From: Eledone cirrhosa
Taxonomy: Eukaryota
Direction of reading: 5' to 3'
Assembly (NCBI GenBank): GCA_964016885.1
Contig: OZ024742.1
Span: 253,332,001 to 253,396,000 of the forward strand
DNA length: 64,000 nt
The translations under genes were made by a program, and so were the position numbers. The stretch's first letter is position 1. Every line of letters begins with the position of its first letter. Of the stretch, positions 1 to 54,599 are shown one piece after another. The notes below the pieces were generated by a model. The model was not told where the DNA came from. It was given only the letters and a program-made list of their open reading frames with translations, and did no database searches.

Positions 1-843
1 AACATAAAAAAGAAGATCTATAGAGAATTAAGTCATCAAGAAAAACAAAAGCGTAACCTAATACAAGAAATAGCTAAAATAACCACACCAACAGAAAAAC
101 TAATATTTATAAGCCTTATACGCCCCGAAGAACAGTACATTACTCAAGAATGTGATAAGCACTTTAACAGAAAACTAAAGTGGCTTAAACAGGCAAAGCT
201 AAATCGGGATACTATAGAGTATATCAATAGATATCCCGACAAAATTGACGGTATCAACATGGCCGACACCCCATTATCAGAAGAGTTCAACAACGAAAAT
301 ACCAACATTTATGGAAACACGGAAATAGATAATAATGAAATGTCTGTGTTATGTCTGCCACCCAAATTTGCGACATTCAAGAAGGTAAATATGATTAGTG
401 GTCTGTCAGAAATAGAAAAATCATTTACAAAACTACGCTGGAGCATCAAGAACAAAAGCAACAATATACGCACACACATATACAACACACATCCCAACAA
501 CAACAGACACACAGACACAAACAACAATAACAACAACACACACATCAACAACAAAAACAATAGCAACATACCCAGATACAACAACAACAGACACGCAGAC
601 ACAAACAACAATAACAACACACACAACAACGATAACACACACGGAGACAACAATAACAACAACACATACATCAACAACAACAACAATAGCAACATACCCA
701 GATACAACAACAACAGACACGCAGACACAAACAACAATAACAACACACACAACAACGATAACACACACGGAGACAACAACAACACACATCAACAACAACA
801 ACACACACGCATTCAATGCCTCTCACCACCACCACAATCTTAA
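1..843 (+). CDS. N-terminal part of PLE protein with Asn/Thr/His-rich tandem insert; frameshifted relative to RT ORF
   Basis: Frame 1 is open from base 1 to 843; EMSVLCLPPKF...EIEKSFTKLRW resembles the PLE N-terminal LxxGxxF/LRW region; the same Asn-rich peptide is in frame with RT in copy 2. Confidence 0.7.
   Translation, partial: NIKKKIYRELSHQEKQKRNLIQEIAKITTPTEKLIFISLIRPEEQYITQECDKHFNRKLKWLKQAKLNRDTIEYINRYPDKIDGINMADTPLSEEFNNENTNIYGNTEIDNNEMSVLCLPPKFATFKKVNMISGLSEIEKSFTKLRWSIKNKSNNIRTHIYNTHPNNNRHTDTNNNNNNTHINNKNNSNIPRYNNNRHADTNNNNNTHNNDNTHGDNNNNNTYINNNNNSNIPRYNNNRHADTNNNNNTHNNDNTHGDNNNTHQQQQHTRIQCLSPPPQS
497..800 (+). repeat. ~126-bp (AAC/AC-rich) coding tandem repeat inside PLE ORF
   Basis: TAGCAACATACCCAGATAC at 561 and 687 (126 apart). 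Confidence 0.85.
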
Positions 844-3524
844 CAAACACACAGACACAGAAAACAAGTAATGACAGTAGCATAGAAATCAGAGAAATAA
901 GAGAAAGTAATAGGATTAAAAGGAAAAGGAGATGGGAGACTAAGGACAAAGAGAATAACCAAGACGAACACACAGACACACAAAATAGGGTAGATAACAA
1001 CATTGAGCCAGTGGAAAGAGACAGGAGTAATTATGAGAGACATAGAAACAACCATGAGGCTGAGGCTGTTGGTGGAAATAGAAATAGAAACAACACAACT
1101 AACAATAATAATAGCACTAGTACACATAAAGCAGCAGCCTGGAACTCTCCGTTTTATAACCCATCCGATAAATCATTCGACCTACGACGAGTCCACGCCA
1201 CGACTCTGCCATTTAACAAACGCACGCAGTTGCCGTCGCAGGTCGATGAACAAACAGAAGCACAATTTAGTATAGCTAAATCCGAACTTAGAAATATTAT
1301 AGAACAGTATAGCAAGAAGCATAATAGAATAGAGGCCCAGCAACTGGGAGAAAAATCTGCAAATGGCTTGCGTAAGCTCATGCAGCGCTCGCGTAATGGA
1401 GAGATAGCATGTTTTCCAACAGACAAGTCTGGCAGAATGTCGGTTGACAGCCTGCCAAACTACATCCAGGCAATGCAACCCCACATCACTAACACAAGAG
1501 AGGTAACACCACAGGAGCATGAGGATAGAGAAAAAGCCCTCAATGCCCATATGGTGATGTGGACGAATATAATGCAGCCCAACAAAAGGACTGCCAACAA
1601 CTTCCAGGCCTGGAACAATGACGTGCCGGCGTTGTATGGGCTTCGAAATGACCATAAAACGGGCTGGGACCCTGTCGCGGGACCACCAACACGGCCAGTC
1701 TGTGGGGCTAACATTGCTAGTAACTACAGACTGTCCTACTTCCTCTCCCTGATCATACGCCCCATCATTGAGATGTCCCCAGATGTGTGTGACAGCACGG
1801 AGGACCTCCTCAGCAGAATCGGCGCGAGTAACCGATCTGGGGACCTAACAAACTGCATAATAGGCAGTATGGATGTTGTGTCCCTGTATCCATCTATTGA
1901 CGTGGATTTTGCTGTGGAGAAATGCGTAGAAATGATCAGCGAGAGCAAGGTTGAGTTCCGTGGGATTGATACCAGTGAGCTGGGACTTCTACTTAAGCTT
2001 ACCCATAGTAATAGTTACCTAGACACTTATGACCTTAGCAACCTGTTCCCTACAAGACCAGCAAGAGGCAGACCACCTACCATTACCTCAATGGCCAAGA
2101 AAACCCACACAGATAGATGGAACGGGTGGACCAGAGCCATATGGACACCCGAAAACCACGATGAACTGAAGAAAATGATTGCACATGTGGTAGGGGCCAG
2201 CATAAAATTAACCCTTAAGGAACATATGTTCAAATTTAATGGTAAAACATATGCCCAAGAGGAAGGAGCAGCCATTGGTGTTAGCATTGCAGGCGACATA
2301 GCTAACTTATTCATGGTATGGTGGGACAGTAGACTTAAACAAAAACTTAAAGAACAATTAGAAGACAGCTTAACCCTGATAATGTACTCCCGCTACGTAG
2401 ATGATATAAACATCGTAGTTAAGACATCCCCACTAAAGAACAGTCAGGAACTAGAGAAAAACACAATGGAAAGCATCCAGCAAATAGCAAACTCCATCCA
2501 CCAGAGCATTAGAGTTACTATATACTACCCAAGTAGACACCCCAACCATCGATTACCTGTACTAGACACAGAGCTCTGGTTAGATACCATTAACAACCAA
2601 AAACAAATCCTCCATTCCCATTATGCCAAACCCATGACTTCCAAACATCTGATCCACCGAAATTCGGCCATTTCGGACCATACCAAAATCAACATACTGA
2701 TTGCGGATTTGGTACGGGTGATGAGAAATGTGTCCCGCATGTGCAACCCCGAAGAACTAGAGAGACACACACAACACTTCATCCACCGTATGCAGTTCTC
2801 TGGCTACAATCAGAGAGATAGAATCAGAGTGTATAAAGGAGCCAGAACCAAATGGGAAAAAATGGTAAATAATGACATAAATGGGACCTGCCCCTTGTAT
2901 AGGAGCAAATTTTGGAATAGAATAGAAAGAACTAGGAACAAGGCCAATAGAATAAACTCATGGTATGATAGCAATAAATACCAGAGTGTAATGTTCATCA
3001 ATACAACCCCTAGAGGCGAACTAGCCTACAAATTTAGAAGGGCCCTAAATAAACATAATCTCAATATTAAGATAGTAGAAAGACCAGGTACCTCCGTAAA
3101 AACACTTATTAGCAAGACATACCCGTTCCAAAGACCCTCATGTATAGATAAGAAATGTATAACCTGTAAAATAAGCCCCCATATTAACTGTAAAACTAGA
3201 AATGTAGTGTATAGCATAAGATGTACAGAAGGACAATGTAGAAACAAAAATATAGTGTACATAGGTGAGACAGATCGTAGTATAGGGGAACGAATAAATG
3301 AACACTGGCGAGACCTCCAAGATAATAAAGAATCATCTGTGCTCTACCAACATGCTAAGATAGAACACAGGGATAGACTAGAGAACATAGAAATAAAAAT
3401 AGAATCCACACACAGAAAAGACGCAATGTTTAGGCAAATTACAGAGGCAGTAAGCATAAAAGAATTAAAACCAAAATTAAATAGAAAATATGAGTGGAAC
3501 AGCAACATCACAACTTACAATTAA
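816..3524 (+). CDS. PLE reverse transcriptase + C-terminal GIY-YIG endonuclease (902 aa)
   Basis: PTDKSG, PTRPV, SMDVVSLYPSI, GAAIG, YSRYVDD, LPVLD, Cys-rich linker CxxxxCxxC, NVVYSI...YIGET..R...EH, RQITEA...KLN. Confidence 0.93.
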   Translation: MPLTTTTILTNTQTQKTSNDSSIEIREIRESNRIKRKRRWETKDKENNQDEHTDTQNRVDNNIEPVERDRSNYERHRNNHEAEAVGGNRNRNNTTNNNNSTSTHKAAAWNSPFYNPSDKSFDLRRVHATTLPFNKRTQLPSQVDEQTEAQFSIAKSELRNIIEQYSKKHNRIEAQQLGEKSANGLRKLMQRSRNGEIACFPTDKSGRMSVDSLPNYIQAMQPHITNTREVTPQEHEDREKALNAHMVMWTNIMQPNKRTANNFQAWNNDVPALYGLRNDHKTGWDPVAGPPTRPVCGANIASNYRLSYFLSLIIRPIIEMSPDVCDSTEDLLSRIGASNRSGDLTNCIIGSMDVVSLYPSIDVDFAVEKCVEMISESKVEFRGIDTSELGLLLKLTHSNSYLDTYDLSNLFPTRPARGRPPTITSMAKKTHTDRWNGWTRAIWTPENHDELKKMIAHVVGASIKLTLKEHMFKFNGKTYAQEEGAAIGVSIAGDIANLFMVWWDSRLKQKLKEQLEDSLTLIMYSRYVDDINIVVKTSPLKNSQELEKNTMESIQQIANSIHQSIRVTIYYPSRHPNHRLPVLDTELWLDTINNQKQILHSHYAKPMTSKHLIHRNSAISDHTKINILIADLVRVMRNVSRMCNPEELERHTQHFIHRMQFSGYNQRDRIRVYKGARTKWEKMVNNDINGTCPLYRSKFWNRIERTRNKANRINSWYDSNKYQSVMFINTTPRGELAYKFRRALNKHNLNIKIVERPGTSVKTLISKTYPFQRPSCIDKKCITCKISPHINCKTRNVVYSIRCTEGQCRNKNIVYIGETDRSIGERINEHWRDLQDNKESSVLYQHAKIEHRDRLENIEIKIESTHRKDAMFRQITEAVSIKELKPKLNRKYEWNSNITTYN

Positions 3525-3826: not shown

Positions 3827-3871
3827 AGTCACTGAAGAGGTCACAGAGTGTGTGACGAAAGGACTATGACT
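3827..3871 (+). ncRNA. Minimal type I hammerhead ribozyme, family A
   Basis: AGTCA-CTGAAGA-g-GTCACA gagtg TGTGAC-GAAA-ggac-TA-TGACT. Confidence 0.85.
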
Positions 3872-20858: not shown

Positions 20859-21301
20859 TAAAAGGAAAAGAAAATGCTGACAAATTGTTCCCAGTGAAAA
20901 ATAGTTTAATTAAGAATAAGTAAAAATCAGTAATAGTATTGGTTAGTATTCAGTTTTGGTTTTAAGTTTTACCGGTTGCGCATTTCTAATGCTTTTCAAA
21001 AATAATTTTGAGATAGAGCGCCCGTGATGTTTGCTCTAATCTGATTAGTTTTGGAAATTCTACCTGTTTTATGTAAAAAAAGTGGCTCCAGATGTATGAA
21101 AAAATTCTTGTGGTCAAAACAATTTTGATTGGTCGGTAGAGGTCATGTGAATGTTAGAAATTGATATATATACATATATATATACATATATATATATATG
21201 TAGGAGGTGAGTTTTATTGTAGAACAATAAAGCAATGCAGATATGTTGATCTAAAACTGAACTATTCACAAGTGTTTTTTAACCTTCATATCATGTCTTC
21301 C

Positions 21302-21639: not shown

Positions 21640-22340
21640 TTAAATGTAAGTATGTATACGTACATACATATATGTATACAGACGTACAGTAGTATGTATA
21701 TATATACATACATGCACACATATATATATGCACGTATCGGTTTACCGAACATTTATTATAATGCTCGGTTTGTATGTTTATAAACAAACAAACATCCCGA
21801 ATTACGCCGTACAGTGTTTAGGCAACCACGTCACCTTTTTGTTCAACACTGACACAGGAACGATGTACTAGTTTCAAGCATATTAGCTATCGTCAGCATC
21901 GTATATCTTCCTGCCAGATGGTTGAACGCCTGAAAGTATATACTTTCCTTATGCATATTAACGGCTGAGCAGCCTAATTTGCATATCAAGTGAGTTCCTG
22001 TACATCGTTCCTGTGTCAGTGTTGAACAAAAAGGTGACGTGGTTGCCTAAACACGGTACGGCGTAATTCGGGCTGTTTGTTTGTTTACAAACAAACAAAC
22101 CGAGCATTATAATAAATGTTCGGTAAACCGATACGTGCATATATATATGTGTGCATGTATGTATATATATATACATACTACTATACGTCTGTATACATAT
22201 ATGTATGTACGTATACATACATACTTACTTACATTTAAGTAAGTGCTGTACTAAGAGTGAGAAATGAAATTTCGTTTCATTCTATTCTATTTATCGTTTT
22301 CGGTGTGCCCGGCCGACTGAACTCACTCGATATGCAAATT
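21640..22340. mobile_element. Non-coding HHR repeat unit (family N) with inverted partial copy
   Basis: Homologous to 37065-38190; 22000-22240 inverts 21640-21868. Confidence 0.8.
21860..21902 (-). ncRNA. Minimal hammerhead, family N
   Basis: Minus: ACGATG-CTGACGA-tAGCtaatatGCTt-GAAA-CTAG-TA-CATCGT; palindrome ACTAGT. Confidence 0.82.
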
Positions 22341-30972: not shown

Positions 30973-31501
30973 AATATGGTTTTATAAATATAGTTTGCAT
31001 TTGTTAATTCGTATATATCCTCACCCGATCCTCACGCCTCCTGATGCGCAACTCCATCCGCGCCTCCCGTTCCACCCTCCGCCTACTTGACCACCAACTG
31101 ACCCCCCCCCCCTCCTCCGCCTTTACTCCACCTGCCACCCCCTCTTCGCCCAAGCCATCCTCTCCTTCATCCACAACCTCAACCACAACCTCTTCTCGTT
31201 CCTCAGCTCCACCAAAGCCCGCAAGCTACACTCACTGCCCCCCCCCCCCATCCACCACCACCCGCCATCCCCATACGCCCACCACTCTCCACCTCTCCCT
31301 CGACCCACACCCCTACCCAATCTCCCCCCTCCACCTCCCCCTCACCCCCCAAACACCCAAACCCCACCCCTTGTTGTCACCATACCCCCTGACCTCCCCC
31401 TCTCCGCACCTGAGCGCTCACTCCTTAGTAGAGGCCTTCGCTTCATACCCCACACTCCGCACAGCGACGAGTTCCGCACCCGAACGGAAGTCGAGCGATT
31501 C

Positions 31502-32737
31502 GTGCGACGCACTAAGCTACAGGCACATTTCGGCCGAACGCCAGCGGCTCCGGACGCCCCAGACCCGTTTCTCGCCCTGGGCCGACGACCATCTTCTTGG
31601 ACGCCGGCCCCAGGGCAATTTAGCACCCTGGACGCCTTCGTCGATGCCAGCCGTAGCGCAGTAAATCGTTTCGACTTCCGCCACCGTTCCAAACGGCACA
31701 ATATCTCACGGGGCGAACTCCTCGCTCTCCGCTCCCTCCGTAGCCGAGATGACATCGTCATCAAACCGGCGGACAAGGGAGGCGCCGTAGTGGTATGGCG
31801 CGCGGACCTCTACACGGCCGAAGCCCTCAGGCAGCTCTGTAACCCCCTCTTTTACCGCCCTCTACCCTCCGATCCCACCCCCCTCTACCAACAACAAGTC
31901 TCCTCCACCATCAAAGATCTTATCGCCTCCTCCCTCCTCCCCCCCACCGCTTCCCACCTCATCGTCCGCACCCCCCGCACCCCCACCATGTACTTCCTCC
32001 CCAAACTCCACAAACCCGACAACCCCGGCCGCCCCATCGTCTCCGCTTGCAACTGCCCCACCGAACTCATCTCCGCCTTTCTCGACTCCCTCCTCGCCCC
32101 CCTTGTCACCACCCTCCCCTCCCACATCTCCGACACCAACCACGCCCTGCGCCTTTTCGACTCCTTCACCTACCTACCCGGCCCACAGCCCTTCCTCTTC
32201 ACCCTAGACATCAAGTCCCTCTATACAGTCATCCCCCACGCCGACGGCCTTCGTGCCCTCAAACACTACCTCGACCTTCGCCCCTCCCCCATTCCCTCCA
32301 CCCCCACTCTCCTTCGCCTCGCCAAGCTGGTCCTCACCCTAAATTGTTTCTCCTTCTCGGGTGAGTTTTACCAACAGGTCACGGGGGTAGCCATGGGCAC
32401 AAGAATGGGCCCGAACTATGCCAACCTTTTTGTTGGCCATGTTGAGGCCCAAATCTTTGCCAAGTACACCGGCCTCACGCCCGAACTGTACGGTCGTTAC
32501 ATTGACGACTGTATCGGAGCCACGACCCTCACCCGAGAACAGCTCGACTCCTTTCTCTCCTTCTTCTGCTCCTTCCACCCCTCCTTCCACTTCACCACCT
32601 CTATCTCCACCACCCACGTCCACTTCTTAGACATCTCCGTCGCCTTCGACCCCTCCCACCACTCCCTCGTCACCTCCGCCTTCTTCAAACCCACCGACTC
32701 CCACTCTTACCTCGACTTCCTACCCCACCCACACTAA
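31502..32737 (+). pseudogene. PLE reverse transcriptase core
   Basis: 411-aa frame with RT motifs; frameshifts on both sides. Confidence 0.88.
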
Positions 32738-34746
32738 ACACTCCATTCCCTACTCCCAACTTCTCAGGATCCGCCGCCTCTGTAGCCGTGATGCTGACTT
32801 CGAATCCCAGGCCCTTTCCCTAGTCAGCCATTTCATCCGCAGAGGTTACCCTCCTCTCTCGTCTACACCGCTCTCACCCGCGCCCGTGCTATCCCCCGCT
32901 CCACCACCCTCACCCCACGCCACCGCACACCCACCCACCGTCTCCCCTTCCCCATCACCTACCACCCATCCACCTTACCCCTCCACCGCACCATCCGCCG
33001 CCTCTTCCGACGCCTCCAGTCCGACCCCTCCACCTCCCACATCTTCCCAACCCCACCACTCCCCTCCTTCAAACGCGCACGCAATCTCCGCACCCTCCTC
33101 GTCCACAGCTCCCTACTCCCCAACCCACGCTCTGTTTCCCCCCCGGTTCCTTTCCCTGTTCTAGGCCCCGCTGCAACACCTGTCCCCACATCACCAACAC
33201 CACCACCTTCCAGGGTCCCAACGGCCACCCTCTCTCGGTCCGGCATGCCTTCCGCTGCACCTCCTCCAACCTAGTCTACGGACTTCGCTTATGTCGGACA
33301 GACGAGACGTCGCCTGGCGGACCGAGTCACGGAGCACCTCCGGGATATTCGTCTCGGGGGCAGTTCCCCCATCGCCCGCCACTTTGGTGGCCCTGGACAC
33401 TCCGCACGCCATCTCACAGTCTGTGGCCTACTCCAGTGCCACGGAACACCCGCCCATCGCCTTACGGTCGAACAACGAACTATCTTCATCTTACAGACCC
33501 ATACTCCCCCCGGCCTGATCTCCCCACCCTTATTCCTTTAGCGTTCGACCGCCCCCTCCCCCCACACTTATCCCCCACTAACACCACTAACACACCCCTC
33601 CTTTTCACCGCCCACCCCACACTAACAATACTAACACCTCCACTCCACCCCTCATCTGACCACCCTTCCCCAACTAACATACTAACATCCCTTCCTTCCC
33701 CTCTTCTCCTCCTCCCCCTCCTTATCACACGCACACACGCACCCACTTACACCTCCCACCCCACACGCAACTAACACCACTAACACCCCCCAACCCCACG
33801 CACACGTACCCACACACCCTCGTACACCACCAACTCTACACACCCTACCACCACTAACCCCCACTCACACCTGCATTCAACCCCTCCCCACCTCCCGTAT
33901 ACTAACACCCACTAACACATCTTCACCAAACTACACACACACCAGTACACCACACTCCCTCCATAGAACCACACACACCCTTCTCTCCCCGCTCCACCCA
34001 CACCCCCGCTCCACACTCACTCATCCGATTAACACCCCTACTAATACACACACACACACACACACCCTCCTCACTCCAACTTTCACACCTACCCATCCTC
34101 GCCCCCTTAGCATTCCACCGACTGCTGCTATGCCCTTCTGACCACCTCCCAGCACCAACAGACCACAGCACTCCCACTGCTGACCACTTCCTGTTGCGCG
34201 CGCACCCCACATCTCTCCTCTTCCGACCACCGCTTCATGGATTACCCACACGCAGAAATTGACTTATAACCAATCCTCCTAACATCCTTGGAACTTACCA
34301 ACTTTTCAACCATCCCCTATCCACACACGCACAGACACTCCGACCCACAAAAACACCCCCCACACACACCTCTTCCTGAACATGCAACCCCGTTCTTCCC
34401 CCAACACTTACTTTCACATACACACACACACACACACACGCACACCTACACACACACACCACCTTCAGCCCTCCCCGCTCGGACACCCCGTCTCCCTCTC
34501 CCCACTCCACCCGCCACCACCCCTACTCACCCTACACCCTTCCACCACCTGTTTACCCCCCTTTTAATTTCAGTTTATTTTGATCATGCCTTTATTTTTA
34601 AATTTTCTCATTCCTTGTATTTTGATCATGCTTTATTTTTATTTTTTATCTTTATTTGTTAATTTTTCATTCGCACCGTTTCCTTTCGCTATATGTCTCT
34701 CCACCACTCCCCTACACACCTTTTGAACTCTGTTCCCACACACTTC

Positions 34747-34782
34747 TCACCTGAGGAAGGGCTTATGCCCGAAACGTCGTCC
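34747..34782 (+). ncRNA. Minimal hammerhead of the Neptune-like PLE
   Basis: AC-CTGAGGA-a-GGGC ttat GCCC-GAAA-CG-TC-GT; palindrome ACGT. Confidence 0.8.
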
Positions 34783-36531: not shown

Positions 36532-37328
36532 TTAATGGTACATATAATCACTGGAATGCTCAGCCACTTGATAGCTACTTTAACATATAGTCTGTTTGGT
36601 TATATAAACAACTGGATCACTTATTGTCAAAACTGACATAAGTTGTATATTAATACTAGCTGAGGTACCTGGCTTCACCCGGGAGAACAGAGAAAACGAC
36701 TGTATATGATGTGTTGTCAGGTTTGAGGTGAAACCATAATGTGTGTGTGTGAGAGAGAGAGAGACATAAAAAAACAATCATAAAACTTCCTTATTAGACT
36801 TGGGGAGTAAACTGCCGATTAAATGGTAGCATTCGCCTTGGATTTTAAATGCTTGAAATAACCATAGTCAGTATGATCTTTTTCAGCTACAAAGGACGTC
36901 ATCTGCAACACAGCAATATACCGCATAACATTGCTTCTGAAGTGTTGCTTCGTTAGTATGGTCTGTAAATAGTATATGGATAAAAGCTGAAGGGTAGATT
37001 AATTTCAAATGGCATCAATTTTTCTTTGTTCTGTAAAATCGAAGACTAAAATGACTTTATAAAAGGAAAAGAATGAAACGAAATTTCATTTCTCACTCTT
37101 AGTACGGCTGTTACTTAAATATAAGTATGTATACGTACATATATATATGTATACAGACGTACAGTAGTATGTATATATATATACATACAGGCACGCATAT
37201 ATATATGTACGTATGGATTCACCGAACGTTTATTATAATGCTCGGTGTGTTTGTAAACAAACATCCCGAATTAAGCCGTACAGTGTCTAGCAACCATCGT
37301 TGCTCATTTGTTCAACACTGACAAAGGA

Positions 37329-37371
37329 ACACTGTACTAGTTTCAAGCTTATTAGCTATCGTCAGCAACGT
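37329..37371 (-). ncRNA. Minimal hammerhead, family N
   Basis: Minus: ACGTTG-CTGACGA-tAGCTaataAGCTt-GAAA-CTAG-TA-CAGTGT. Confidence 0.82.
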
Positions 37372-37754
37372 ATACCTTCCTGCCAGATGATTAAACGTCT
37401 GAAAGTATATACTTTCCTTATGCATATTAACGGCTGAGCAGCCTAATTTGCATATCGAGTGAGTTAATCGGCCGGGCGCACCGAAAACGATAAACGGAAA
37501 AAGTGAAACGAAATTTGATTTCTCACTCTTAGTACGGCTGTTACTTAAATATAAGTATGTATACATACATATATGTATACAGACGTACAGTAGTATGTAT
37601 ATATATATACATACAGGGACACATATATATATGTACGTATGGATTCACCGAACATTTATTATAATGCTCAGTGTGTTTGTAAACAAACATCCCGAATTAA
37701 GCCGTACAGTGTCTAGCAACCATCGTTGCTCATTTGTTCAACACTGACAAAGGA

Positions 37755-37797
37755 ACACTGTACTAGTTTCAAGCTTATTAGCTATCGTCAGCAACGT
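37755..37797 (-). ncRNA. Minimal hammerhead, family N
   Basis: Identical to 37329, 426 bp downstream. Confidence 0.82.
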
Positions 37798-38392
37798 ATA
37801 CCTTCCTGCCAGATGATTAAACGTCTGAAAGTATATACTTTCCTTATGCATATTAACGGCTGAGCAGCCTAATTTGCATATCGAATGAGTTAATCGGCCG
37901 GGCACACCGAAAACGATAAACGGAAAAAATGAAACGAAATTTCATTTCTCACTCTTAGTACGGCTGTTACTTAAATATAAGTATGTATACGTACATACAT
38001 ATATGTATACAGACGTACAGTAGTATGTATTTATATATACATACATGCACACATATATATATATATGTGTGCATTTAAATGTTCGGTGAATCCATACGTA
38101 CATATATATATGTGTGCATGTATGTATATATATATACATACTACTGTACGTGTGTATACATATATGTTTATACGTATACATACTTATACTTTATAAAAGC
38201 TAACGCAATATTGTTGAACCTTCCTATAGATCAAAGAATCTATAGTTTAAGCCGTTCTAGACTTTTGTAGGATATTACTCTCTCTGAATATCTAACACTT
38301 TTATTGTATCTCTCTCTGTATAACGGCCTATCTCTCTCTTTCTGCCTCTCCGTCTGTGTGTGTCTCTCTCTCTTTAGACATGTGTGTATATA

Positions 38393-38467
<75 letters not shown>

Positions 38468-39149
38468 ATTTGTGTGTGTGTGTGTGTATGTGTAGATTTC
38501 ATGTGATTCAACCAACCAACTAATAAACATTTTTCTTTTATATTATATATAGATATAGAATATTTGTATCCATTTTGTCTGTGGAATACTCAACCACTTG
38601 AGTGTTACTTGAACATATAATCTGTTTGCTTAACTAAACAACTGAATCGCTTATCGTAAAAACTAACATAAGTTGTATGGAAGTTGTATCTTCACTTTGT
38701 CTGTGGAATACTCAGCCACATTGACCTTAATTTAAAGTCCAGGCTGTTTAGTTGACCAAACAACTGGAACACGCATCGTCAAAAGAGATGCAAGTATATT
38801 TATGGTAGTTTGTTTGAGTTTTGCCTATTCTTGTATATATATACATATATATATACAATAAAGAATGTCCATAGAATCATTTGATAAAATATATACATTA
38901 TTTCCTCTCCCACTCAGCATAATCAACCACACAGAAAACCAATTAGACAAGGCTATAAGATAGAAAGGCACCTATGAAGAAATACTAGATAAATAAACGA
39001 CAGCTATCTATCCGCGATCAACAGCTATATAATATTTACCCAGCATTTCTAATAGCACGTGGAAATCGATTAAATATATCGTCAACCATACACAATTAGG
39101 TATAAAATAAAAGTTAGAAGAAAAAAAGTATATAAGCATACCAAAATTA

Positions 39150-39724: not shown

Positions 39725-40026
39725 AATATATATATATATATATGTTATATATATGTGTATATGTTATATATATATGTTTTATATATATATATATATATAT
39801 ATTTCGTTTCTGAATTTGTTTAGCAAGATTCTTTATCTGAAATCGTGTGTTGAAACCGATATTGTTATACTTTGGGAGGGTCATGTTTCCAATAAGAAAC
39901 ACACGCACCAGTTGCTTTCACTTCAATTTATTATAAATTTATAAATTTACAAATTAACAAATTTACAAACTTATAAATTTCTGGTTGGTTGGTTGGTTCC
40001 ACAACCAGATAGTTGTTTATATATAT

Positions 40027-40071
40027 AGTCATAGTCCTTTCGTCACACACTCTGTGACCTCTTCAGTGACT
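40027..40071 (-). ncRNA. Hammerhead, family A
   Basis: Reverse complement of 3827-3871. Confidence 0.85.
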
Positions 40072-40189
40072 GGGGATTCCTTTCTTCGTTTCTGTGCCTT
40101 TCCTTTCTTCTATCCTACGCCATTTTGTTTCTGTGTGTGTGTTGTGTGCTCAGTTTGCGCATGCGCCACATCCGGGTGTCTGTGTGTGT

Positions 40190-43047
40190 TCAACAACAAC
40201 AACAATAGCAACATACCCAGATACAACAACAACAGACACACAGACACAAACAACAATAACAACACACACAACAACGATAACACACACACACGGAGACAAC
40301 AACAACACACATCAACAACAACAACACACACGCATTCAATGCCTCTCACCACCACCACAATCTTAACAAACACACAGACACAGAAAACAAGTAATGACAG
40401 TAGCACAGAAATCAGAGAAATAAGAGAAAGTAATAGGATTAAAAGGAAAAGGAGATGGGAGACTAAGGACAAAGAGAATAACCAAGACGAACACACAGAC
40501 ACACAAAATAGGGTAGATAACAACATTGAGCCAGTGGAAAGAGACAGGAGTAATTATGAGAGACATAGAAACAACCATGAAGCTGAGGCTGCTGGTGGAA
40601 ATAGAAATAGAAACAACACAACTAACAATAATAATAGCACTAGTACACATAAAGCAGCAGCCTGGAACTCTCCGTTTTATAACCCCTCCGATAAATCATT
40701 CGACCTACGACGAGTCCACGCCACGACTTTGCCATTTAACAAACGCACGCAGTTGCCGTCGCAGGTCGATGAACAAACAGAAGCACAATTTAGTATAGCT
40801 AAATCCGAACTTAGAAATATTATAGAACAGTATAGCAAGAAGCATAATAGAATAGAGGCCCAGCAACTGGGAGAAGAATCTGCAAATGGCTTGCGTAAGC
40901 TCATGCAGCGCTCGCGTAATGGAGAGATAGCATGTTTTCCAACAGACAAGTCTGGCAGAATGTCGGTTGACAGCCTGCCAAACTACATCCAGGCAATGCA
41001 ACCCCACATCACTAACACAAGAGAGGTAACACCACAGGAGCATGAGGATAGAGAAAAAGCCCTCAATGCCCATATGGTGATGTGGACGAATGTAATGCAG
41101 CCCAACAAAAGGACTGCCAACAACTTCCAGGCCTGGAACAATGACGTGCCGGCGTTGTATGGGCTTCGAAAAGACCATAACACGGGCTGGGACCCTGTCG
41201 CGGGACCACCAACACGGCCAGTCTGTGGGGCTAACATTGCTAGTAACTACAGACTGTCCTACTTCCTCTCCCTGATCATACGCCCCATCGTTGAGATGTC
41301 CCCAGATGTGTGTGACAGCACGGAGGACCTCCTCAGCAGAATCGGCGCGAGTAACCGATCTGGGGACCTAACAAACTGCATAATAGGCAGTATGGATGTT
41401 GTGTCCCTGTATCCATCTATTGACGTGGATTTTGCTGTGGAGAAATGCGTAGAAATGATCAGCGAGAGCAAGGTTGAGTTCCGTGGGATTGATACCAGTG
41501 AGCTGGGACTTCTACTTAAGCTTACCCATAGTAATAGTTACCTAGACACTTATGACCTTAGCAACCTGTGCCCTACAAGACCAGCAAGAGGCAGACCACC
41601 TACCATTACCTCAATGGCCAAGAAAACCCACACAGATAGATGGAACGGGTGGACCAGAGCCATACGGACACCCGAAAACCACGATGAACTGAAGAAAATG
41701 ATTGCACATGCGGTAGGGGCCAGCATAAAATTAACCCTTAAGGAACATATGTTCAAATTTAATGGTAAAACATATGCCCAAGAGGAAGGAGCAGCCATTG
41801 GTGTTAGCATTGCAGGCGACATAGCTAACTTATTCATGGTATGGTGGGACAGTAGACTTAAACAAAAACTTAATGAACAATTAGAAGACAGCTTAACCCT
41901 GATAATGTACTCCCGCTACGTAGATGATATAAACATCGTAGTTAAGACACCCCCACTAAAGAACAGTCAAGAACTAGAGAAAAACACAATGGAAAGCATC
42001 CAGCAAATAGCAAACTCCATCCACCAGAGCATTAGAGTTACTATAGACTACCCAAGTAGACACCCCAACCATTGATTACCTGTACTAGACACAGAGCTCT
42101 GGTTAGATACCATTAACAACCCAAAACAAATCCTCCATTCCCATTATGCCAAACCCATGACTTCCAAACATCTGATCCACCGAAACTCGGCCATTTCGGA
42201 CCATACCAAAATCAACATACTGATTGCGGATTTGGTACGGGTGATGAGAAATGTGTCCCGCATGTGCAACCCCGAAGAACTAGAGAGACACATACAACAC
42301 TTCATCCACCGTATGCAGTTCTCTGGCTACAATCAGAGAGATAGAAGCAGAGTGTATAAAGGAGCCAGAACCAAATGGGAAAAAATGGTAAATAATGACA
42401 TAAATGGGACCTGCCCCTTGTATAGGAGCAAATTTTGGAATAGAATAGAAAGAACTAGGAACAAGGCCAATAGAATAAACTCATGGTATGATAGCAATAA
42501 ATACCAGAGTGTAATGTTCATCAATACAACCCCTAGAGGCGAACTAGCCTACAAATTTAGAAGGGCCCTAAATAAACATAATCTCAATATTAAGATAGTA
42601 GAAAGACCTGGTACCTCCGTAAAAACACTTATTAGCAAGACATACCCGTTCCAAAGACCCTCATGTATAGATAAGAAATGTATAACCTGTAAAATAAGCC
42701 CCCATATTAACTGTAAAACTAGAAATGTAGTGTATAGCATAAGATGTACAGAAGGACAATGTAGAAACAAAAATATAGTGTACATAGGTGAGACAGCTCG
42801 TAGTATAGGGGAACGAATAAATGAACACTGGCGAGACCTCCAAGATAATAAAGAATCATCTGTGCTCTACCAACATGCTAAGATAGAACACAGGGGTAGA
42901 TTAGAGAGCATAGAAATAAAAATAGAATCCACACACTGAAAAGACGCAATGTTTAGGCAAATTACAGAGGCAGTAAGCATAAGAGAATTAAAACCAAAAT
43001 TAAATAGAAAATATGAGTGGAACAGCAACATCACAACTTACAACTAA
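40190..43047 (+). pseudogene. PLE RT/GIY-YIG with two nonsense mutations
   Basis: CGA>TGA at 42073 and AGA>TGA at 42937 relative to copy 1. Confidence 0.9.
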
Positions 43048-47700: not shown

Positions 47701-48300
47701 ACAACTTCTCTAGTGCATGGGATTATATGTAAGCAAATAGCAGGCTGCCAGCCTTGTCTGAGGATGTCGTAGATAACAGGATCATACATAAGTGAGGTAC
47801 AGGCTCCCAGAATACCAGCCTGGTTTGCTGATGACCCATCCAACCTTTACTAGTAAAGCAGACGTTGAAGGATGATGGTGTTGAAGGATGATGATGGAGC
47901 AGAAGGATGACAGTAATAATGATGATGATGGCAGTGATTATAAAGATGAGGATGATGATGACGATGATGATGATAACTGATGTTGATGTCAATTATATTG
48001 ATGATGATGATGGCAATGATGATGAGATGGTGAAGATGATGAAGATGATAAAAATGATGATGATGATGATGTTAATAAAGGCCTTTAGCAGATTCTGTCT
48101 ACTGAATTTCTCTCATTCATATAAACTAAATCTCTTCAAATTCTTCATTATTTTCCAAATGGTTTGAAGAACATAGACAGTTTTTAAAAATAAGAAATAT
48201 GGTATTTAATGGGTTAAAATGACTCTATTTATCTAAAAATTCCTTTCATCATAATTTTATGTATGAAAATTTGTTGAGTTATGTTCCAAAAACAAGTTTG

Positions 48301-48539
48301 TTATATTACTAAATCTTCCAAATTTATTATATTACTAAGTCCTTCCAAATTTATTATATTACTAATTCCTTCCAAATTTATTATATTACTGAATCCTTCC
48401 ACATTTATTATATTACTAAATCCTTCCAAATTTATTATATTACTAAATCCTTCCAAATTTATTATATTACTAAATCCTTCCAAATTTATTATATTACTAA
48501 ATCCTTCCAAATTTATTATATTACTAAATCCTTCCAAAT
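48301..48539. repeat. 27-bp minisatellite (~9 units)
   Basis: TACTAAATCCTTCCAAATTTATTATAT repeats. Confidence 0.95.
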
Positions 48540-52179: not shown

Positions 52180-54595
52180 TCATGTACATGATCATGAAAA
52201 TTGTCGGCACATCATTAACCATCACCATCACTATTACCATCACCCTCATCAGCATCAATATCATCATCATCACCATCATTATCATCACCATCATTATCAT
52301 CATCATCAATATCAACATCACCATTAACATCATCACCATTAACATCACCATCATTATCATCACCATCATTATCATCAACATTATCATCATCATCATTATC
52401 ATCAACATCATTATCATCACCATCATTATCATCATCATTATCATCAACATCATTATCATCACCATCATTATCATCACCATCATTATCATCATCATTATCA
52501 CCAACATCATTATCATCACCATCATTATCATCATCATTATCATCAACATCATTATCATCACCATCATTATCATCACCATCATTATCATCATGATTATCAC
52601 CAACATCATTATCATCAACATCATTATCATCATCATTATCATCAACATCATTATCATCACCATCAATATCATCACCATCATTATCATCACCATCATTATC
52701 ATCAACATCATTATCATCAACATCATTATCATCATCATCATTATCATCACCATCATTATCATCAACATCATTATCATCAACATCATTATCATCACCATCA
52801 TTATCATCACCATCATTATCATCATCATTATCACCAACATCATTATCATCAACATCATTATCATCATCATTATCATCAACATCATTATCATCATCATTAT
52901 CATCAACAACATTATCATCACCATCAATATCATCACCATCATTATCATCAACATCATTATCATCAACATCATTATCATCAACATCATTATCATCATCATC
53001 ATTATCATCACCATCATTATCATCACCATCATTATCATCAACATCATTATCATCACCATCATTATCATCACCATCATTATCATCAACATCATTATCATCA
53101 CCATCATTATCATCATCATTATCATCACCATCATTATCATCACCATCATTATCATCACCCTCATCATCATCATCACCATCATTATCATCACCATCATTAT
53201 CAACATCATTATCATCAACATCATTATCATCATCATCATTATCATCATCATCATTATCATCACCATCATTATCATCAACATCATTATCATCACCATCATT
53301 ATCATCACCATCATTATCATCAACATCATTATCATCACCATCATTATCATCATCATTATCATCACCATCATTATCATCACCATCATTATCATCATCATCA
53401 TTATCATCACCATCATTATCATCACCATCAGCATCACCATCATTATCATCACCATCATTATCATCACCATCATTATCATCACCATCATTATCATCACCAT
53501 CATTATCATCATCATTATCACCAACATCATTATCATCAACATCATTATCATCATCATTATCATCAACATCATTATCATCATCATTATCATCAACAACATT
53601 ATCATCACCATCAATATCATCACCATCATTATGATCAACATCATTATCATCAACATCATTATCATCAACATCATCACCATCATTATCATTATCATCACCA
53701 TCATTATCATCACCATCATTATCATCACCATCAGCATCACCATCATTATCATCACCATCATTATCATCACCATCATTATCATCACCATCATTATCATCAC
53801 CATCAGCATCACCATCATTATCATCATCATCATTATCATCATCATCATTATCATCAACATCATTATCATCACCATCATTATCATCACCATCAGCATCACC
53901 ATCATTATCATCATCACCATCAGCATCACCATCATTATCATCATCATCATTATCATCACCATCATTATCACCACCATCATTATCATCACCATCATTATCA
54001 CCACCATCATTATCATCACCATCATTATCATCACCATCATTATCACCACCATCATTATCATCACCATCATTATCATCACCATCATTATCATCACCATCAT
54101 TATCATCACCATCATTATCATCATCATTATCATCACCATCATTATCATCACCATCATTATCATCATTATCATCATTATCATTATCATCACCATCATTATC
54201 ATAACCATCATTATCAACATCATTATCATCACCATCATTATCATCAACATCATTATCATCTTCAACATTATCATCATCATCACAATCATCATCACCACCA
54301 CCATGATCATCATTATCATCAACATCATCACCATCATCATTACCATCATCATTATCGCCATAATCATCATCATCCTCACCAGCACTGGCATCATCATCAT
54401 CATCACAAAGATCATCCATATTATTATCACAATCACCATCACCACCATCATCACCATCATTATCATCATTAAAATATCATCATCAATAACAACATAACCA
54501 TCATCATCATTTTCTTTATCATCCTCAATATATACATTATCATCATCATAACAATCATCATCATCATCAATATAATCATCATCATCATTGTCATC
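52180..54595. repeat. (ATC)-derived 12/15-bp higher-order minisatellite
   Basis: ATCATTATCATCACC / ATCATTATCATCAAC units. Confidence 0.95.
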
Positions 54596-54599
54596 AGCA

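Follow-up and report, generated by a model that had tools for sequence, protein, structure and literature searches.

A young, high-copy Penelope-style retrozyme of Eledone cirrhosa with a putative U6-type promoter block

Two points about animal retrozymes are open, namely what transcribes them and what copies them back into the genome. Both are raised by a tandem array of 426-bp units in a 64,000-nt stretch of the Eledone cirrhosa genome (G000:C3:253332001-253396000; the window, that is, the whole stretch of DNA analysed), and the family to which these units belong offers testable answers. The array is a real, young and very abundant retrozyme of a known class, the animal non-LTR retrozymes, mobilised in the Penelope style. 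The reading that we favour, with moderate confidence, is that the locus is a high-copy retrozyme insertion, likely pasted in by a Penelope-type enzyme and likely transcribed from a U6-type promoter element present in each unit.

The array comprises 2.35 units of 426 bp and is non-coding, with no ORF of 120 aa over it. TRF recovered it at 37059-38062 with a period of 426, 2.3 copies and 95% matches, in agreement with the original prediction of about 2.3 near-identical tandem units, and the short inversion proposed to close it was located by BLAST (Table 1). One intact hammerhead per unit had also been proposed; this holds for units 1 and 2, but not for the partial third unit or the inverted arm. 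The diverged copy previously seen at 21640 was recovered with the same hammerhead. A feature absent from that earlier description is the 12-bp TSD found on both sides of the array. The TSD site is present once, with the sequence continuing uninterrupted, in 10 of 11 fetched paralogues of the flanking repeat, and empty-site joints also occur among three sets of DNA contigs; the 1,122 bp therefore entered inside one duplication. Both window units share minority alleles, for example an A at 37393 and 37819 where G accounts for >99% of contig depth. The insertion host is a dispersed repeat (window about 36655-37053 and 38200-38510; 1,127 first-look candidates) starting TACTAGCTGAGGTACC, which we take to be reminiscent of non-autonomous Helitron-type elements. 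TRF also reported long tandem arrays of 15 bp (163 copies, 52210-54596) and 27 bp (9 copies, 48293-48539) in the window.

Table 1. Features of the 426-bp array and of its diverged copy, in window coordinates
Feature	Position	Strand	Remarks
Left TSD copy ACTTTATAAAAG	37054-37065		Last bases overlap the element's tail end
Unit 1	37060-37490	-	96.5% to unit 2 (BLAST); 3' (tail) end of the insertion lies at its low end
Tail of unit 1	about 37060-37114	-	
Minimal type I hammerhead 1	37329-37371	-	Predicted cut 37335/37334; palindrome ACUAGU; U.U at stem II base
Predicted 426-nt monomer, cut site to cut site	37335-37760	-	Predicted circle; prediction only
Palindrome GAAAGTATATACTTTC, unit 1	37401-37416	-	Holds TATATAC (37411-37405), a TATA-like box
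12-mer TATGCAAATTAG, unit 1	37443-37454	-	12-mer of host U6-type promoters; octamer ATTTGCAT within CTAATTTGCATA
Unit 2	37491-37916	-	TRF, BLAST
T5 run in unit 2 tail	37498-37502	-	First T>=4 run past hammerhead 2; may stop Pol III
Minimal type I hammerhead 2	37755-37797	-	Predicted cut 37761/37760
Palindrome GAAAGTATATACTTTC, unit 2	37827-37842	-	Holds TATATAC (37837-37831)
12-mer TATGCAAATTAG, unit 2	37869-37880	-	Upstream of both hammerheads; octamer ATTTGCAT within CTAATTTGCATA
Third unit, partial	37917-38075	-	5'-truncated, without hammerhead (BLAST)
Inverted arm	38076-38187	+	5'-truncated, to the second fixed ('no-tail') end; without hammerhead (BLAST)
Right TSD copy ACTTTATAAAAG	38188-38199		
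Diverged sister-subfamily copy	21640-22340		Independent head-to-head insertion, 88%
Hammerhead of diverged copy	21860-21902	-	Stem I fully paired
12-mer of diverged copy	21974-21985	-	

The minus-strand hammerhead reads CUGACGA-U-AGCU-AAUA-AGCU-U-GAAA-CUAG-UA. Its core begins at 37365 and 37791 in the array; that of the diverged copy begins at 21896. An Rfam scan of the window gave no match at gathering scores, so the motif scores below the curated hammerhead models. The core motif is not a chance occurrence, since its pattern has 26,127 exact matches in the 3.0-Gb genome against none for the reversed control. Among 214 motifs (175 of the first type and 39 of the sister type), stems I and II vary in pairs between subfamilies; these motifs were chosen at <=1 core mismatch and <=2 mismatches in GAAACTAGT, so that core conservation is partly built in. 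When stems I and II and one long-range helix were followed through 15 monomers, 95.8% of cells were paired, compared with 20-43% in slid controls, and both-sided changes were seen in 9 of the 19 pairs. This covariation consists of a few events shared by descent and indicates a kept structure, not a probability. Stem I of the window copy has a minority G.U.

Predicted circles of six monomers each folded below all 40 shuffles, with z from -5.9 (window copy) to -9.9, and their helix order is the same across the 426-bp family and a sister family described below. The opposite strand also folds well (z -3.7 vs -5.1), and part of the predicted fold is therefore DNA palindrome. The isolated hammerhead folds no better than shuffles (z -1.3 to +0.6), with the core at only -3.8 kcal/mol. 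Stem III amounts to two pairs around a 2-nt loop, which a monomer cannot close. A forced active dimer reached -147.8 kcal/mol, 15.6 kcal/mol better than two forced monomers (-132.2); for the two-hammerhead RNA the best predicted fold (-160.6), 12.8 kcal/mol below the forced dimer, is an inactive one, and the probability of the ACUAGU duplex is about 0 in the predicted ensemble. Dimer-only cleavage, as modelled, fits a 2-bp stem III with a palindrome. In the available text of the respective reports, minimal hammerheads act as dimers with low activity in vitro (PMC4209133), dimerisation improves cutting by axolotl motifs with U.U at the base of stem II (PMC7229834) and, among Xenopus hammerhead dimers, 8 of 9 gave no product (bioRxiv 10.64898/2026.07.22.740005).

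Genome-wide, the 426-bp family is accompanied by a sister family of 465-468-bp units that is 64.5% identical to it and has 5,451 matches to a pattern excluding the 426-bp family (control 15); intact cores exceed 31,000 over the two. The sister family (L161-L215) has G-C at the stem II base, two stem II variants, long head-to-head arrays and many copies that are 99-100% identical, and it is probably younger than the 426-bp family; one of its copies lies just left of the window (L248:3704-4148). A third, older hammerhead family (L365-L376, L380, L384, L385-L409; e.g. G000:C3:41160573-41160606), with 42 exact core matches, differs in its palindrome (AUCGAU) and is not similar to the 426-bp unit by BLAST. 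Taken in genome order, the first 100 cores fall into 60 insertions, 40 of them with a single intact core and 14 with same-strand tandems. Within three young insertions the units diverge by 0.3-0.9% outside the microsatellite, also across the inversion, against 7.8% between loci. Internal divergence reaches 7-9% in two old arrays; since these long arrays are also partly tree-structured, DNA-level duplication acts as well. One 16-kb array of the 426-bp family (L082-L083, G000:C1:118080066-118096418) has about 40 units some 9% apart, with internal inversions and block duplications, and resembles satellite-like growth from a retrozyme.

The insertion footprint was analysed at 85 non-redundant loci; 68 had been fetched as best hits or as neighbours and 17 came from the genome-ordered list, and overlapping ids and three long arrays that run off their loci were excluded. 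Head-to-head arrangements were found at 58 of them: 38 have one tail end and one no-tail end, two have two no-tail ends and none has two tails. Opposite-strand neighbours were likewise head-to-head in all 10 cases among the first 100 genome-ordered matches. Sense 3' ends (n=143) fall at the tail end in 64 cases, at a site 55 nt earlier in 59 and elsewhere in 20, and (TA)n adjoins 89 of the 123 fixed ends. The two fixed ends fall inside the unit, at a distance of 220-275 nt from the cut site, and the sister family has its ends at homologous places; coding PLE families of this genome likewise have two end sites. PLEs are reported to insert as partial tandems with an inverted 5'-truncated copy and with a tail at one end (PMC8557442), and the insertion features tested here (these three plus a microsatellite target) were all found. 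The Penelope-type mobilisation suggested in the original prediction thus gains support, as the ends match the PLE tail and inversion pattern, and a Penelope-like element likely supplied the enzyme that inserted the retrozyme.

This footprint bears on the reading of the family as a DNA-level satellite, or a rolling-circle DNA element, in which the hammerhead-like sequence is incidental. Arrays of about 40 units with internal duplications would suit such an origin, as would the large share of the fold that comes from palindromes and the good folding of the opposite strand (z -3.7). However, the copies are dispersed and 5'-truncated, their 3' ends are fixed and have a tail on one side only, and there are a TSD and a strand-specific conservation of the catalytic core; all this speaks against such an origin, which we find most improbable.

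Neither end lies at the cut site, from which we infer a template longer than one cut-to-cut piece, either a circle or a multimer. If it were a linear read-through multimer, the element would be the same Penelope passenger, its hammerheads would trim the RNA or rarely cut it, and a circle would be unneeded. Read-through of a homogeneous tandem would also yield near-identical units and internal ends, and the inactive lowest-energy fold and the weak cleavage reported for minimal motifs (PMC4209133; bioRxiv 10.64898/2026.07.22.740005) point the same way. Yet the core and palindrome are kept while the stems covary across families, insertions of 5-8 units that are near-identical or of equal age exceed what a short source array could provide, and circles are reported for coral, mussel and axolotl retrozymes (PMC7229834). 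We therefore regard the linear template as unlikely and keep the circle in the preferred reading.

Retrozyme units might also be leftover pLTRs of a coding Penelope-like element, with no independent life. The insertion anatomy is the same as that of coding PLEs, 5'-truncated PLEs often keep only the terminal repeat according to the available text of a recent preprint (bioRxiv 10.64898/2026.07.22.740005), and coding PLEs of this genome carry similar minimal hammerheads. Against this, the units run head-to-tail into further units without any ORF, as the retrozyme identity originally proposed implies, and the case in which the unit is always the pLTR of a coding PLE did not hold in the sampled loci, to which the exclusion applies. 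With 10 PLE protein queries, matches near the unit occurred at only 8 places among 113 locus ids, representing five families, and the inspected junctions are separate insertions. Foreign DNA upstream of the promoter block gave 142 pattern matches, and the 30 that were fetched were truncations or rearrangements, none joined to an ORF. A further search for a coding partner of the GIY-YIG family, in which 150 of 10,596 candidates were scored and 30 loci and 17 longer stretches inspected, found the unit near an ORF in opposite orientation at L045/L084 and, at L096, beyond that element's own end and (TA)n tract. No RT + GIY-YIG ORF, the feature of autonomous EN+ PLEs, was found in or attached to the unit. 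The 12-mer described below precedes the hammerhead in none of seven coding families. Taken together, these observations leave the pLTR origin very unlikely, and we retain an independent retrozyme.

The one 2.7-kb same-strand gap among 100 matches proved to be two separate insertions. At L190:1008-1198 a sister-family copy abuts, at its 5' end and with no microsatellite in between, 271 bp from the end of a PLE ORF in reversed orientation; a template switch may have made this junction. The locus has the look of a chimeric insertion, but the PLE fragment stops short and, of 29 further loci of this PLE, just one had a unit nearby.

The window itself holds three coding PLE copies, which have other hammerheads and no similarity to the 426-bp unit. 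Two copies of one family lie on the plus strand at 762-3524, with a 920-aa open frame, and at 39958-42939, where the frame is split by a stop; this family has inverted terminal copies and a hammerhead with a longer stem II, found at 3832 (+), 4241 (-), 40066 (-) and 43360 (+). An RT + GIY-YIG element broken into frames occupies 31091-33774 (+), with a minimal GAAACGUC hammerhead-like motif at 34751. Hammerhead variants with a U3-A8 core, also reported for Schistosoma (PMC4209133), occur in the coding PLE families L022, L086, L091, L085 and L410-L421. The young L091 family has CAA in place of the expected GAA, and a terminal piece of it lies in the window at 20860-21160 (-). In protein searches, relatives of PLE proteins occurred in mollusc-associated data.

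Concerning the enzyme, one young coding PLE family (L410-L421) with many intact 784-aa frames provides a lead to the helper, drawn from sequence likeness. The end motifs at issue are TTCTATTCCGTTTA in this family and TTCTATTCCRTTTA in the retrozyme: the family ends TTCTATTCCGTTTACCAA before (TA)n, while the tail end of the retrozyme is TTCTATTCCATTTA in the 21640 subfamily and TTTTTTTCCGTTTA in the main one. The two end sites are alike at 13 of 14 bases, a low-complexity likeness in a setting where other families also end in pyrimidine runs, and no longer homology between candidate helper and unit was found beyond the end site. The linker of the candidate has a CX4CxxC pattern, which the literature, as far as its available text goes, ties to Neptune elements and to microsatellite targeting.

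We then turn to what could transcribe the units. The longest identical run between the 426-bp and sister families is the 12-mer TATGCAAATTAG. The octamer inside it and the TATATA hairpin, both reported in the original prediction as simple extras, are indeed present, but they are not mere curiosities, as they match the U6-type promoter elements of this genome. Host small-RNA genes were located by Rfam searches and the 12-mer was scored at <=2 mismatches, with a background of 29 matches in 385,700 nt. Four of seven U6 loci, representing three distinct promoters, have the 12-mer at -77 to -80 and a TATA at -30 or -31; of the remaining loci, one has an insertion behind it and two are pseudogene-like. 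The 12-mer and TATA occupy the same intervals in one of five U6atac genes (the best-scoring), the only MRP gene and both tRNA-Sec genes, and the 12-mer was found in none of the U1 (6), U2 (3), SRP (3), RNase P (1) and 7SK (1, a weak match) genes. The match to the unit's 12-mer is 12 of 12 at U6 locus L303 and at tRNA-Sec loci L339 and L340, and the unit shows the host-type TATGCAAAT(T/G)AG-like 12-mer upstream. A U1/U2-type proximal element formed by ACTCAC and the octamer was also considered and rejected, because U1 and U2 have TCAGT near -57 and no 12-mer. The TCAGT element of U1/U2, in place of the 12-mer, also occurs in the RNase P RNA gene (L338, G000:C24:12936134-12936474) and the weak 7SK match (L349); the SRP genes have neither element.

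Downstream of its 12-mer the unit has a TATA box, GTATATAC, that resembles the host RGTATA(T/A)A boxes. From 12-mer to TATA, each of the 64 monomers (of 70) that carry the motif measures 42-43 nt and the host genes measure 47-49 nt, so that the 426-bp family falls about 5 bp short of the defining spacing. The search for the 12-mer outside the 426-bp and sister families led to the third family. Among 25 of its copies chosen on the hammerhead alone, 10 have the 12-mer about 106 nt upstream, with a TATA 46-48 nt past it in seven of these 10, a U6-like spacing, and 19 of the 25 have a T-run about 40 nt past the core. To judge from these motifs, the third family looks like a small Pol III unit ending just past the ribozyme. 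Within 300 nt before the hammerhead the 12-mer, at <=2 mismatches, was found in 0 of 7 coding PLE families, and it is absent from 12 copies of the candidate helper.

These data must be weighed against the reading that the array is a retrozyme whose 12-mer is no working promoter but a hairpin arm or a relic, the RNA coming from Pol II or from host read-through; this reading bears on the promoter step alone, and in part it coincides with the others. An RNA hairpin is predicted in which the 12-mer makes up one arm, and this role could account for the conservation of the 12-mer; its spacing is about 5 bp below that of every host gene. Internal T-runs fit as well. Past the core, the first run of T>=4 comes after about 290 nt, within the tail and next to its end; the 426-bp family has T5-T7 runs there and the sister family two T5 runs, the T5 of the window copy being T6 in most relatives. 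Such runs would stop most Pol III transcripts before hammerhead 2, and a full unit would thus need read-through or another polymerase; newt satellite 2 is reported to be transcribed by Pol II from an snRNA promoter (PMC2220036). On the other hand, the 12-mer arm is fixed whereas its partner arm varies, the TATA stands at a constant distance in the 426-bp and sister families, an unrelated-looking third family has U6-like geometry, and the U1/U2 promoters of this genome lack the 12-mer. A non-promoter role is, in our judgement, a serious possibility that stays short of probable, and with one failed spacing test the promoter stays a candidate. The 12-mer matches the host U6-type element in at least two independent-looking families. 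This match of a conserved block to a host U6-type promoter is what is new here; searches of mostly open-access literature gave no report of a U6-class element in a retrozyme.

Under the preferred reading, a retrozyme with a U6-type promoter in each unit, the locus offers the least that a monomer would require, two hammerheads with a promoter block upstream of both. If the U6 geometry from the TATA (30 nt) holds, transcription would start about 16 nt before the core, at window position about 37807. The promoter of the upstream unit would fire before its hammerhead, many transcripts would stop at the tail T-run and those reading through would reach the next hammerhead. The two hammerheads could then pair through ACUAGU and cut, and the resulting 426-nt piece, now holding the promoter sequence, would be closed into a circle. 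A Penelope-type RT-endonuclease would nick AT-rich DNA on both strands and prime at the two fixed internal sites 55 nt apart, and copying more than once round would give head-to-head arms of near-identical units. Since the promoter lies upstream of its own start, only a more-than-unit copy would regenerate an expressible element. Expression, cutting, ligation and helper are all inferred in this model.

As a tentative extension, hammerhead retrozymes of this animal lineage may have captured an external U6-type Pol III promoter more than once. An ordinary retrocopy loses such a promoter, and cleavage, circularisation and more-than-unit copying by a Penelope enzyme would regenerate it; the 5-bp shorter spacing of the youngest families would then reflect a retuned or switched polymerase, and the helper would be the young coding family ending TTCTATTCCGTTTA. 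The promoter block can be compared base for base with host U6-class genes and comes with a predicted start, terminator and cut site, while the footprint (two fixed ends, one tail and a verified TSD), together with the young coding PLE family as candidate helper, bears on how the units are copied back. The intact cores of the 426-bp and sister families, more than 31,000 in total, would also give a single genome a large stock of potential small-RNA promoters; if the reading is true, the dispersed copies that could serve as U6-class transcription units number in the tens of thousands.

Compared with known systems, the array shows every testable feature of a non-LTR retrozyme: non-coding tandems of about 150-500 bp, one type I hammerhead per unit, covarying stems, dispersal and mobility, a TSD >4 bp and, in the sampled loci, a unit that is not the terminal repeat of a coding element; self-cleavage and circular monomers are predicted by the model. 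Metazoan non-LTR retrozymes as described in the available text of Cervera and de la Pena 2020 (PMC7229834), with units of 350-390 bp in mussel and 330/350 bp in axolotl and also known from coral, are alike in being non-coding tandems of a few hundred bp with one type I hammerhead each, GC <50% (0.37 here), a TSD >4 bp, a strong predicted circular fold and a palindromic stem III that needs a dimer. The U.U at the stem II base is shared with axolotl HHR_Amex2 (PMC7229834). Two-ended head-to-head insertions with a tail and the U6-type element are undescribed in that text; the present family was analysed as DNA sequence. The giant squid genome paper, in its available text, only counts 235 hammerhead matches. 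A plant LTR retrozyme (type III hammerhead, LTRs, PBS/PPT and a 4-bp TSD) was rejected, as the motif is type I, there is no LTR layout and the TSD has 12 bp.

The retrozymes of Li, Clavereau and Pollet 2026 (bioRxiv 10.64898/2026.07.22.740005, available text) likewise co-occur with coding PLEs, and the array has the two consecutive complete-motif units of their 'putatively active' definition, except for an isolated core at -3.8 kcal/mol. These authors favour local tandem growth from one pLTR and found pLTR homology, whereas here near-identical units and inverted arms lie within one TSD and a homologous pLTR was not found. EN+ PLEs with minimal hammerheads (PMC4209133; PMC8557442, available text) share the partial tandems, the inverted 5'-truncated copy, the one-end tail, the microsatellite targets and the palindromic minimal hammerhead, but the retrozyme has no ORF and its tail measures 55 nt instead of 30-40. 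Only the missing ORF separates the array from the autonomous PLEs. The promoter block of the retrozyme is unlike the seven coding PLE families of this genome.

The Pol III promoter of Schistosoma Sm-alpha is of the tRNA type. Newt satellite 2 (PMC2220036) and Sm-alpha (PMC6765202), as far as the available text of both reports goes, are like the present family in being hammerhead repeats with their own small-RNA-gene promoter. The Schistosoma repeats are reported to use Pol III, and cleavage leaves the Sm-alpha promoter at the 3' end of the RNA, which makes tandems necessary (PMC6765202). Unlike the snRNA promoter of newt satellite 2, used by Pol II (PMC2220036), the retrozyme element matches the TATA-containing class of U6, U6atac, MRP and tRNA-Sec genes and not the U1/U2 class.
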